NCBI GenBank assembly: GCA_963710755.1
Contig: CAVQBK010000003.1
Span: forward strand, 821,211 to 885,210
DNA length: 64,000 bases
From: an uncultured bacterium
GTDB lineage: Bacteria > Oederibacteriota > JAAXVQ01 > JAUVAV01
Reading direction: 5' to 3'
The position numbers and the translations under genes are program-made. The notes beneath the pieces are model-generated. The model ran no database searches, was not told the DNA's origin, and was given only the letters and a program-made list of their open reading frames with translations. This document shows, piece by piece, positions 49,356-51,056 of this stretch (within the stretch, counting starts at the first letter, position 1; every line of letters begins with the position of its first letter).

Positions 49356-51056
49356 ATGGATTATTTGAAAAATAAACGGGTTGTGGTCACCGGCGGCGCC
49401 GGTTTTTTGGGTTCACATCTGCTCGAAGAACTCGCTCAGTATCATTGCGAGCAGATTTTTGTGCCCAAAATAGAGGATTTTGATTTAACCAAAGAAGCGG
49501 ACATCCGCCGCTTGTATGAGGAAGTCAAACCCCATACGGTCATCCATTTGGCGGCCGTGGTGGGCGGCATTGGCGCCAATCGTGAAAATCCGGGAAAATA
49601 TTTTTACGATAATTTGATGATGGGTGTCCAATTAATCGAATTGGGCAGGCAATACAAGGTAGAAAAAATAACCGCCATTGGCACTATCTGTGCTTATCCC
49701 AAGTTTACGCCCGTACCATTTAAGGAAAGCGATCTGTGGAATGGTTACCCGGAAGAGACCAATGCGCCCTATGGGTTGGCCAAGAAGATGTTATTGGTGC
49801 AGGCTCAGGCCTACCGCCAGCAATATGGGTTTAATGCCGTCTACTTGCTGCCGGTCAATCTTTACGGGCCACGGGACAACTTCAACCCCAACTCGTCCCA
49901 TGTCATTCCGGCGCTGATTAAAAAGTGCGTCGAGGCCAAGCAGAACGGGGACAAGGAGATCGTGGTCTGGGGAGACGGCTCCCCCACCCGGGAATTTTTG
50001 TATGTCAAGGACGCTGCCCGGGGCATTGCCCTGGCCACCCAAAAGTATGATGGCGACCAGCCGGTCAATTTGGGATCGGGCAAGGAAATCTCCATCAAGG
50101 ATCTTGTCACCCTTATTGCCAAGTTGACTGGGTTTGAAGGCAACATTGTGTGGGATAAAGAAAAACCCAACGGTCAACCCCGCCGTTGTCTGGATACGAG
50201 CCGGGCCAAGGAATTGTTTGGGTTCGAGGCCAAAATGAATTTTGAGCAAGGGTTGAAAGAGACGATTGAGTGGTACCTTAGTAATAAAGAGCAACGAATA
50301 AATGGAGGCCGTATGGAAAAGGAATTGGAATTAAGGGATTATATAAACTTGTTGGGAAAGTACCGGAAACCCCTGATAACAATAATGCTGACAACTTGGG
50401 CATGCATCCTGTTGGCTTTTTTATTGGGCGCAAGACGCTATTCCACCGACATCTATCTGCAAATCGGTAACATGTTGAATTTTGACGGCAACAAAATCAG
50501 TTACTCTCCCATTGAGGATCCCAGAAAATTTGCTGAAAAATTTAATGTTATGAATAATGTTGATTTCGTAACACCGCTCTTGCCGTCCAATATAGTCAAA
50601 ATACGTCTGAGTTCTTTTAATAAAAATGATTTATTAAAAAAAGAAAAAGAAATCAAAGAAAAATTTGTAAGTGAACATCACCAACGCTTTATGGAACGCC
50701 AAAAATATTTAGAAGGCATTTTGGCTCAACTACGCGAAAAAAAAGATGCTGTTGCTCAGGAAATTAAATTGCTGGAAGGCGGCCCCTCTGGTCAAGGTGC
50801 CCGCAAAAATATGATGGAATTAACCACGGATGGCAAAAGCGTTTTGTTGCAACGCAAGGATTACCTGTTTGAATTAAATAATCGCTATGAAAATATTATG
50901 ACCCAGATAAGCAATATTCAACCTTCCCAAGTTTTGCCGGTGGTTAAAAAATTATCCCTCTTGGATTTCAAGTGGATCCTTTTACTTGTACTTTTTGGCA
51001 TGGTCATAAGCATTTCTTTCTGTTTTGCTTATATCATCGCTAAAGAATTAAAATAA
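49356..51056 (+). CDS. fcl: GDP-L-fucose synthase (Fcl) domain fused in-frame to a Wzz-like chain-length-determinant domain
   Basis: Residues 1-~312 are Fcl-like: '[14 protein letters not shown]', catalytic 'APYGLAKKM', 'NLYGPRDNF'. Residues 320-566 contain a transmembrane helix, coiled coil and a second transmembrane helix. The two parts share one reading frame with no stop between them. GGGAGGGG ribosome-binding site at the start. Confidence 0.75.
50313..51056 (+). CDS. Possible independently translated Wzz-like chain-length-determinant protein (internal start within the fcl ORF)
   Basis: A GGAGG motif 4 nt upstream of an in-frame ATG at 50313. '[39 protein letters not shown]' is a typical Wzz N-terminus. 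A second transmembrane helix lies at the C-terminus. Confidence 0.4.

Follow-up and report, generated by a model that had tools for sequence, protein, structure and literature searches.

An open reading frame of 566 amino acids, lying on the + strand at 49356..51056 of the 64,000-nucleotide stretch of DNA analysed here (the window), joins a GDP-L-fucose synthase gene (fcl) to a short gene for a polysaccharide co-polymerase (PCP) of the Wzz-like type. The frame should be annotated as these two genes connected by a missing stop codon and not as a new enzyme class. In the reading that we favour, with somewhat better than even confidence, the fusion is real, recent and strain-specific, and resulted from the incidental loss of the fcl stop. 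It is judged to be incidental because it is a singleton and because its linker is unmodified spacer sequence. The novelty would thus lie in a diverged member of the PCP family and in the single fusion of two known genes. An earlier note on this DNA had described a complete Fcl that runs without a stop into a C-terminal domain, and translation of the window agreed with this, since no in-frame stop was found throughout the 566 codons and residues 5-313 matched NF047922, the NCBIfam model of GDP-L-fucose synthase, over profile positions 1-307 of 308.

The N-terminal half appears to be an ordinary GDP-L-fucose synthase (Fcl/WcaG, GMER) of the extended SDR type. Sequence inspection and the motif scan located a Shine-Dalgarno-like GGAGG (49346..49350, + strand) 5 nt ahead of the fcl start codon. 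The Fcl part covers codons 1-311 (49356..50288, + strand) and ends with ...IEWYLSNK, as delimited by NF047922, PF01370, PF16363, the solved structures and the relatives. NF047922 was the best NCBIfam match of this half, with a score of 298.8 bits, which falls short of the curated equivalog cut-off (500), and the Pfam matches were PF01370 (Epimerase) and PF16363 (GDP_Man_Dehyd). The solved GDP-L-fucose synthases matched it across the whole fold (residues 4-313, E=2e-70 to 1e-60): for 8du0 and 7ll6 the E value was ~2e-70 over residues 4-307, while for the E. coli structures 1bws and 1e6u it was ~1e-61, query residues 6-313 being aligned with chain residues 3-318 of 321. Judged from the alignment with the solved enzymes, the Fcl fold would end just a few residues ahead of M320. 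The translation contains the expected SDR motifs, namely the Rossmann motif (GxxGxxG), YxxxK (APYGLAKK), the Cys motif (TICAYPK) and the His motif (SSHVIPAL), all of which are kept in the homologues; the acid-base role of the Cys and His residues and the catalytic role of YxxxK are presumably those assigned from the E. coli GMER.

The relatives of this half are standalone enzymes. The best 120 were all 311-349 amino acids long and covered at most 57% of the 566-aa frame, homologues with 70-82% identity carry the name GDP-L-fucose synthase in their source records, and the Fcl half is 99% identical to a standalone protein of 312 amino acids (P0002). Comparison of fcl with its counterpart in the related locus L002 gave a dN/dS of 0.03, which corresponds to purifying selection. 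What sets the enzyme of the window apart from the known GDP-L-fucose synthases is the stop missing after the usual tail, together with the score below the equivalog cut-off. In the 19 Fcl relatives retrieved the protein ends 3-11 residues past the conserved WY, and in the locus L009 it ends 12 residues past it; therefore the stop should be expected within codons 310-320.

The C-terminal part (50313..51056, + strand, 247 aa) was delimited by its collinear homologues, by a family profile and by an AF2 model compared with Foldseek. The earlier note had called it a Wzz-like domain. A direct match to Pfam Wzz did not appear: the Pfam and NCBIfam search of the 247-aa part gave no match at E<=0.01, Wzz (PF02706) and GNVR (PF13807) included, and the Pfam Wzz scores of two close relatives, 18.7 bits for P0125 and 14.5 bits for P0123, also remained under the cut-off of 25.5 bits. 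The assignment could be upheld by transitive profile matches and by the predicted fold. Among the remote matches of the family profile, six proteins (P0126, P0127, P0128, P0130, P0132 and P0154) exceeded the Pfam Wzz cut-off of 25.5 bits with scores of 25.9-52.4 bits, and the same six also matched GNVR, more weakly than Wzz except in P0128. An exhaustive comparison of the PCP-family profile with 1.84 billion cluster representatives yielded 58 matches at E<=0.001, six of them at E<=1e-10; in a word-indexed search of 5.8 billion proteins, one cluster was returned when the single sequence was used and three when the alignment was used. The close family is thus very small. The 58 matched proteins are 109-499 amino acids long, all but one being not longer than 310, and in each of them the alignment begins within residues 1-36, so that none carries an Fcl in front.

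Hydropathy analysis (Kyte-Doolittle) showed exactly two transmembrane segments in the whole frame, at residues 338-360 (50367..50435, + strand) and at residues ~537-563 (50964..51044, + strand). They coincide with helices 18-38 and 219-246, respectively, in the AF2 model of the 247-aa part. This model (pLDDT 76.8, built on an alignment of 4 sequences) begins with a helix and the first transmembrane helix, continues with a beta-rich base (strands at 43-101) and a helical hairpin formed by 104-155 and 172-200, and ends with the second transmembrane helix. The hydropathy profile and the model thereby agree with the earlier description of a coiled coil, here predicted as the hairpin, between two transmembrane helices. 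In the Foldseek search against the PDB the best 38 matches were all PCPs (Wzc, KpsE, WzzB 6rbg and WzzE 8p3p), the Wzc chains being at the top, with probabilities up to 1.0 but TM-scores of only 0.18-0.43. In PCPs a canonical proline-rich motif precedes TM2; ahead of helix 2 of the window's protein there is a degenerate proline/lysine motif, and the alignment shows P.(I/V)(K/R/N/S)P(K/R/G) at this position in the remote relatives. Purifying selection is indicated here as well, with a dN/dS of 0.12 for the PCP part compared with the related locus L001. Since the family profile reaches Pfam Wzz proteins, the predicted fold matches PCPs, two transmembrane helices are present and a wzy gene adjoins, the assignment of the 247-aa part as a diverged, short, Wzz-like PCP is supported at the level of superfamily and predicted fold. 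With the Wzz-type PCP-1 proteins (WzzB 6rbg, WzzE 8p3p) and with KpsE (PCP-3) it would share the two transmembrane helices, the alpha/beta base, the long hairpin, and the adjoining wzy and a Wzx-type flippase gene in the cluster, and it differs from them by its length (247 aa compared with 308-332 residues in the matched chains) and probably by the degenerate proline motif.

In order to see whether a stop separates fcl from the wzz-like gene in orthologous loci, as the earlier note had proposed, 15 related loci belonging to four lineages (L002; L004-L008; L009-L012; L013-L016) were compared with the window. The Fcl identity to the window is 99% in L002 and 85% in L004-L008. The gene order was the same in all four lineages: LPG_synthase_TM (where the contig extends so far), a Gmd-like SDR gene, fcl, a PCP gene of 251-258 aa and Wzy_C. 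In 15/15 loci fcl and the PCP gene are separate, with a stop and a spacer of 17-36 nt between them. The Fcl tail is WYKNHLK* in L002 (spacer of 26 nt), WYLKNR* in L004 (31 nt), WYLQRSQTDHKAAV* in L009 (17 nt) and WYLNKGRC* in L013 (36 nt). These standalone PCPs start with MPEQETTIRDY, MIEHEAELNDY, MEKEADLQDY or MEREADLKDY and are collinear with the window's protein when M320 is taken as residue 1. Short PCPs of about 250 amino acids form a lineage-restricted subfamily that is invisible to Pfam; in these uncultured bacteria their gene is invariably flanked by fcl on one side and wzy on the other. The fused form was absent from the 15 related loci, from the best 120 Fcl relatives and from the 58 PCP-family representatives. 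A single 566-aa sequence is on record, P0183; it matches that of the window exactly and comes from one contig of 1,467,107 bp. When GTDB genomes were scanned with the whole frame, only standalone fcl genes were recovered; the best one, with 77% identity and no PCP downstream, belonged to candidate division FCPU426, which offers a lead only as to the nearest named relatives. The scan of GTDB genomes with the PCP profile gave no match.

The junction reads TGG TAC CTT AGT AAT AAA GAG CAA CGA ATA AAT GGA GGC CGT ATG, from W306 (TGG) to M320 (ATG 50313-50315). The GGAGG motif at 50304-50308 is followed by ccgt (4 nt) and by the in-frame ATG of codon 320, exactly as had been noticed from the sequence before. 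Between the Fcl part and this ATG lies a stop-free in-frame spacer of 24 nt (50289..50312, + strand; codons 312-319, EQRINGGR), which in the comparison with L002, L004, L009 and L013 is the counterpart of the fcl stop and the intergenic ribosome-binding region of the relatives. Taken by itself, the Shine-Dalgarno motif with its ATG is weak evidence for a start at 50313, the motif scan having found GGAGG-N3-9-ATG 12 times on the + strand of the window, 5 times at the start of long ORFs and 7 times elsewhere. The standalone PCP homologues begin at precisely this position, and for this reason ATG 50313 is read as the ancestral start of a separate PCP gene. The arrangement of GGAGG, 4 nt and ATG is common to L009, L013 and the window, and codons 312-319 therefore appear to be a former ribosome-binding spacer. 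The distance from the W codon of WY to the ATG is 42 nt in the window, the shortest value, compared with 50-63 nt in the relatives, and the junction alignment shows a gap of 21 nt in the window where the relatives hold their stop; the two values together fit a small in-frame deletion. A point change would be an equally possible route to the loss of the stop, because GAG, CAA and CGA (codons 312-314) are each one substitution away from TAG, TAA and TGA, respectively. Programmed frameshifting was considered and rejected by eye: no slippery heptamer is present near 50274-50300, and the open frame needs no frameshift.

The same bases are those at which an error of sequencing or assembly would matter. 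Both other frames of the junction contain stops (TAG TAA TAA at 50279-50287, and TAA at 50299), and the removal of any single base within 50274-50298 restores an Fcl of 314 amino acids with the natural-looking tail WYLSNKSNE*, which terminates at TAA 50299 with the GGAGG and the ATG following just after. One inserted base would therefore mimic the fusion, and so would a miscalled stop at codons 312-314 or a join of two strains; in all of these cases there would truly be two genes, as in the orthologous loci, every one of which has its stop, the fusion being found on one contig only. On the other side, the longest homopolymer in 50274-50298 is AAA, and no frame-breaking indels at all occur in the flanking genes when they are compared with three independent assemblies (L017, L002 and L001). 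The neighbouring genes with Pfam matches have essentially full-length domains, the window is densely filled with intact ORFs, and the source contig is 1.47 Mb long. We consider an artefact of this kind to be the less likely explanation, but one that carries appreciable weight.

The position of the junction has to be weighed in the same question. L002 matches the DNA of the window with 93.7% identity over 49192-50275 and no further; the match to L001 (86% identity, 50334-52384) sets in at 50334. The segment of 58 nt in between (50276..50333, + strand) was not covered by any of L001-L008 in blastn, while L009 and L013 align across the junction with low similarity there. The GC content changes at this place too: it is ~0.50-0.55 in fcl and drops to 0.32-0.39 and still lower values downstream. 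Since the homology switches at the junction, the critical bases are without an independent sequence check. No second assembly of 50276-50333 was found by exact look-up of the 566-aa frame or of Wzy; the look-up of ParE led to L017, a contig that ends inside fcl, short of the junction. The JGI metagenomes scanned with PCP peptides and with a degenerate DNA pattern of the junction gave no match to it. Regions of fcl with 94-96% identity are present in the runs SRR21285598 and SRR21285606. L001 is the closest PCP relative (88% identity), and it was discarded as a comparison for the junction, being homologous only from 50334. The DNA upstream of this point in L001 is unrelated, of high GC content and encodes HEAT repeats, for which reason that contig is possibly chimeric. 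Metagenome assemblers can cross from strain to strain at exactly such a switch from L002-like to L001-like sequence. However, a real exchange of a cassette beside fcl would give the same mosaic, and the gene order is kept in all lineages. A mosaic of this kind is to be expected at the border between a conserved sugar-nucleotide gene and a variable Wzy-type cassette that is exchanged horizontally. Summed over the incidental, the selected and the decaying readings of the fusion, it is fairly probable that the sequence is real.

According to the preferred explanation, the incidental loss of the stop, fcl and the short PCP gene would originally have been adjacent but separate, and the fcl stop would have been lost at codons 312-314, either by a point change or by a small deletion that kept the frame. 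The event would have taken place where the conserved fcl meets the variable cassette of low GC content, a boundary prone to recombination. The leftover spacer of 24 nt, with the GGAGG of the PCP gene in it, would have been in frame by chance and stop-free, so that a single frame of 566 aa was created. Two products may be envisaged. One would be a fused protein with a predicted mass of 64.7 kDa, in which transmembrane helix 1 of the PCP holds the cytoplasmic Fcl at the inner membrane through a short linker made up of the natural Fcl tail and EQRINGGR. The other would probably be the free PCP, started from the retained Shine-Dalgarno motif and ATG at 50313, with a predicted mass of 28.8 kDa. The N-termini of PCP (Wzz) proteins are cytoplasmic, and the topology of the fused protein is therefore possible. 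The low dN/dS values, 0.03 and 0.12, indicate that both halves are functional genes now or were so until recently. What the sequences show is the open frame, the nature of the two halves, the separation of the two genes in every relative and the uniqueness of the fusion; correct base calls, synthesis of the two products and a function of either one are inferred. Of the possibilities named in the earlier note, a recently lost stop with two putative products fits best. The combined proposition, in which the fusion is real and expressed, the membrane-tethered Fcl-PCP of 64.7 kDa works and the free PCP is co-produced from the internal start, appears quite unlikely to us.

A genuine bifunctional protein had also been suggested for this frame. 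As a conserved architecture it is not supported, because all the related loci keep the stop and two genes. The narrower proposal is that the fusion was selected in this strain, with Fcl tethered to the PCP/Wzy machinery and GDP-fucose made at the site of assembly at the membrane. Such a protein would be topologically feasible, since the PCP has two transmembrane helices and its N-terminus, to which Fcl is joined, would face the cytoplasm; the two halves are intact and constrained, and the strict adjacency of fcl and the PCP gene suggests a functional link. There is a general parallel as well. Wzc-type PCP-2a proteins are PCPs fused to a cytoplasmic BY-kinase, and split PCP-2b pairs also occur in nature; the window's protein resembles them in being a PCP membrane module with a fused cytoplasmic enzyme. 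However, the enzyme domain of Wzc is a kinase at the C-terminus that is conserved in many taxa, whereas here a sugar-nucleotide reductase/epimerase occupies the N-terminus and the fusion occurs in one genome only. The architecture is missing from the four lineages, from the best Fcl matches and from the PCP-family representatives, the linker is an unmodified ribosome-binding spacer in which any sign of adaptation is absent, and the literature search turned up no relevant description of an Fcl-PCP fusion as a precedent. A selected function is thus improbable in our opinion.

Membrane attachment of sugar-nucleotide enzymes is known from another group. The proteins of the WbpM, PglF and CapD type (Pfam Polysacc_synt_2) are SDR sugar-nucleotide enzymes anchored in the inner membrane, and a hypothetical fused Fcl would share their physical arrangement. 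These are 4,6-dehydratases that form conserved families and possess dedicated N-terminal transmembrane helices, in contrast to the window's protein, in which accidental read-through into the whole of an adjacent gene would have supplied the anchor. Were the fused protein to be produced in active form, it would offer a modest natural case of a sugar-nucleotide enzyme tethered to the polymerisation machinery. It would place the synthesis of GDP-fucose at the Wzy/PCP site and would mean that a cytoplasmic enzyme can work as the N-terminal appendage of a chain-length regulator.

The surroundings of the frame appear to be a Wzx/Wzy-type polysaccharide cluster, with fcl and the PCP gene at its conserved edge. 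Directly downstream lies the gene of a Wzy-type polymerase or O-antigen-ligase-like membrane protein (51062..52408, + strand; PF04932 Wzy_C, E=1e-16), which is the downstream neighbour in all related loci, and a flippase-type (Wzx-type) gene with a Pfam match to Polysacc_synt is found at 55285-56664. Upstream, a Gmd-like SDR gene (47499..48458, + strand; PF16363, 217.8 bits) is the neighbour of fcl, in synteny with L004-L012. A gene of the GDP-mannose 4,6-dehydratase type (44371..45501, + strand) matches PF16363 over the full length with 448 bits and would be expected to supply the substrate of Fcl, GDP-4-keto-6-deoxymannose, for its predicted conversion into GDP-L-fucose. GT4 and GT9 glycosyltransferase genes are also present in the cluster, as are RmlD-like and nucleotidyltransferase genes in its upstream part. 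The region shows another recent rearrangement, too, a toxin-antitoxin insertion with a duplicated gene end.

A real loss of the stop could also mean that the fucose branch, or the whole cluster, has begun to decay, the fused product being harmful or inactive. The singleton nature of the event, with no conservation, and the rearrangement nearby would be in line with this. Both halves and all the neighbouring genes of the cluster are intact, however, and the dN/dS values are low, although as lineage averages they are blind to a very recent loss of function. We regard such a decay as very improbable, and the incidental loss of the stop is retained as the preferred explanation.

The boundary between fcl and the PCP gene, being the recombination edge of a variable cassette, would be a place where one small mutation can fuse two genes. 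The spacer of L013 illustrates this, since its 36 nt are in frame and stop-free, and one point mutation in a locus of the L013 type would therefore suffice to produce the same fusion. Fusions of fcl and the PCP gene thus seem to be easy to generate.

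In the lineage of L013 to L016, related loci in which fcl and the PCP gene are separate, fcl ends with a TAG stop codon that is followed by a 36-nt spacer leading to the PCP gene (1270-1335 in L013, and likewise in L014-L016). The spacer contains no stop codon and keeps the reading frame of the PCP gene; one point mutation in the fcl stop would generate an Fcl-PCP fusion of the window's kind in this lineage. In L001, the closest relative of the PCP part (ENA ERZ25039500 contig_52807), the GC content within positions 9600-10000 falls from about 0.6 to 0.3 at approx. 9860 and a HEAT-repeat ORF continues into the PCP gene. 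The latter lacks its first 7 codons, the earliest usable start being the TTG at 9881. Either the metagenome contig is chimeric, or this is a genuine horizontal-transfer junction that lies a few codons into the PCP gene, very near the position of the window's own junction.

In the window, the GC content of the cassette downstream of fcl is 0.29-0.40 (50300-52400 and 55100-57900) versus approx. 0.50 upstream. The low-GC genes comprise those of the PCP, Wzy and a flippase as well as two further ORFs (56651-58865), for which the Pfam search gave no matches. The gene content of the downstream cassette varies among the relatives: radical-SAM/pyruvyl-transferase genes are present in L002 and L004, and a nitroreductase in L001. 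The drop in GC together with the varying gene content is a pattern typical of serotype-like cassette exchange. For the Fcl part, the closest species-representative genome was a candidate division FCPU426 MAG (L096, DAOWGI010000092.1) with 77% identity. The source organism of the window may thus fall within or close to this candidate division, a placement based on one transfer-prone gene. Its fcl (3001-3936) is standalone, encodes 311 aa ending in WYLAHR*, and is followed by neither a PCP nor a wzy gene.

Upstream, the window cluster holds two GDP-mannose-dehydratase-family genes, a Gmd with a strong full-length match (44371-45501, 448 bits) and a Gmd-like SDR with a weaker one (47499-48458, 218 bits), which is located directly upstream of fcl in the relatives. 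Between them sits the gene of an LPG_synthase_TM membrane protein (46437-47495), which is conserved among the relatives. In the Gmd-like SDR gene, the 3' end is duplicated as a 131-nt direct repeat (48318-48448 and 49122-49252, 79% identity between the copies), and the second copy still encodes ...YGDCTKFQNITKWKAQIPMQQTLKDILDYWRAFKT*. The two copies flank an antitoxin/ParE-toxin pair (PF09720 and PF05016, 48551-49081). Since this pair is absent from the relatives L004-L012, a toxin-antitoxin cassette seems to have been inserted here, separating fcl from the Gmd-like gene. In L017 (Logan SRR21285598), a close relative with 90-96% DNA identity, fcl and the ParE toxin gene are separated by the insertion of an additional gene of 302 aa, without any Pfam match (4469-5529); this extra gene is a further sign that insertions are concentrated in the stretch immediately upstream of fcl, as in a hotspot.
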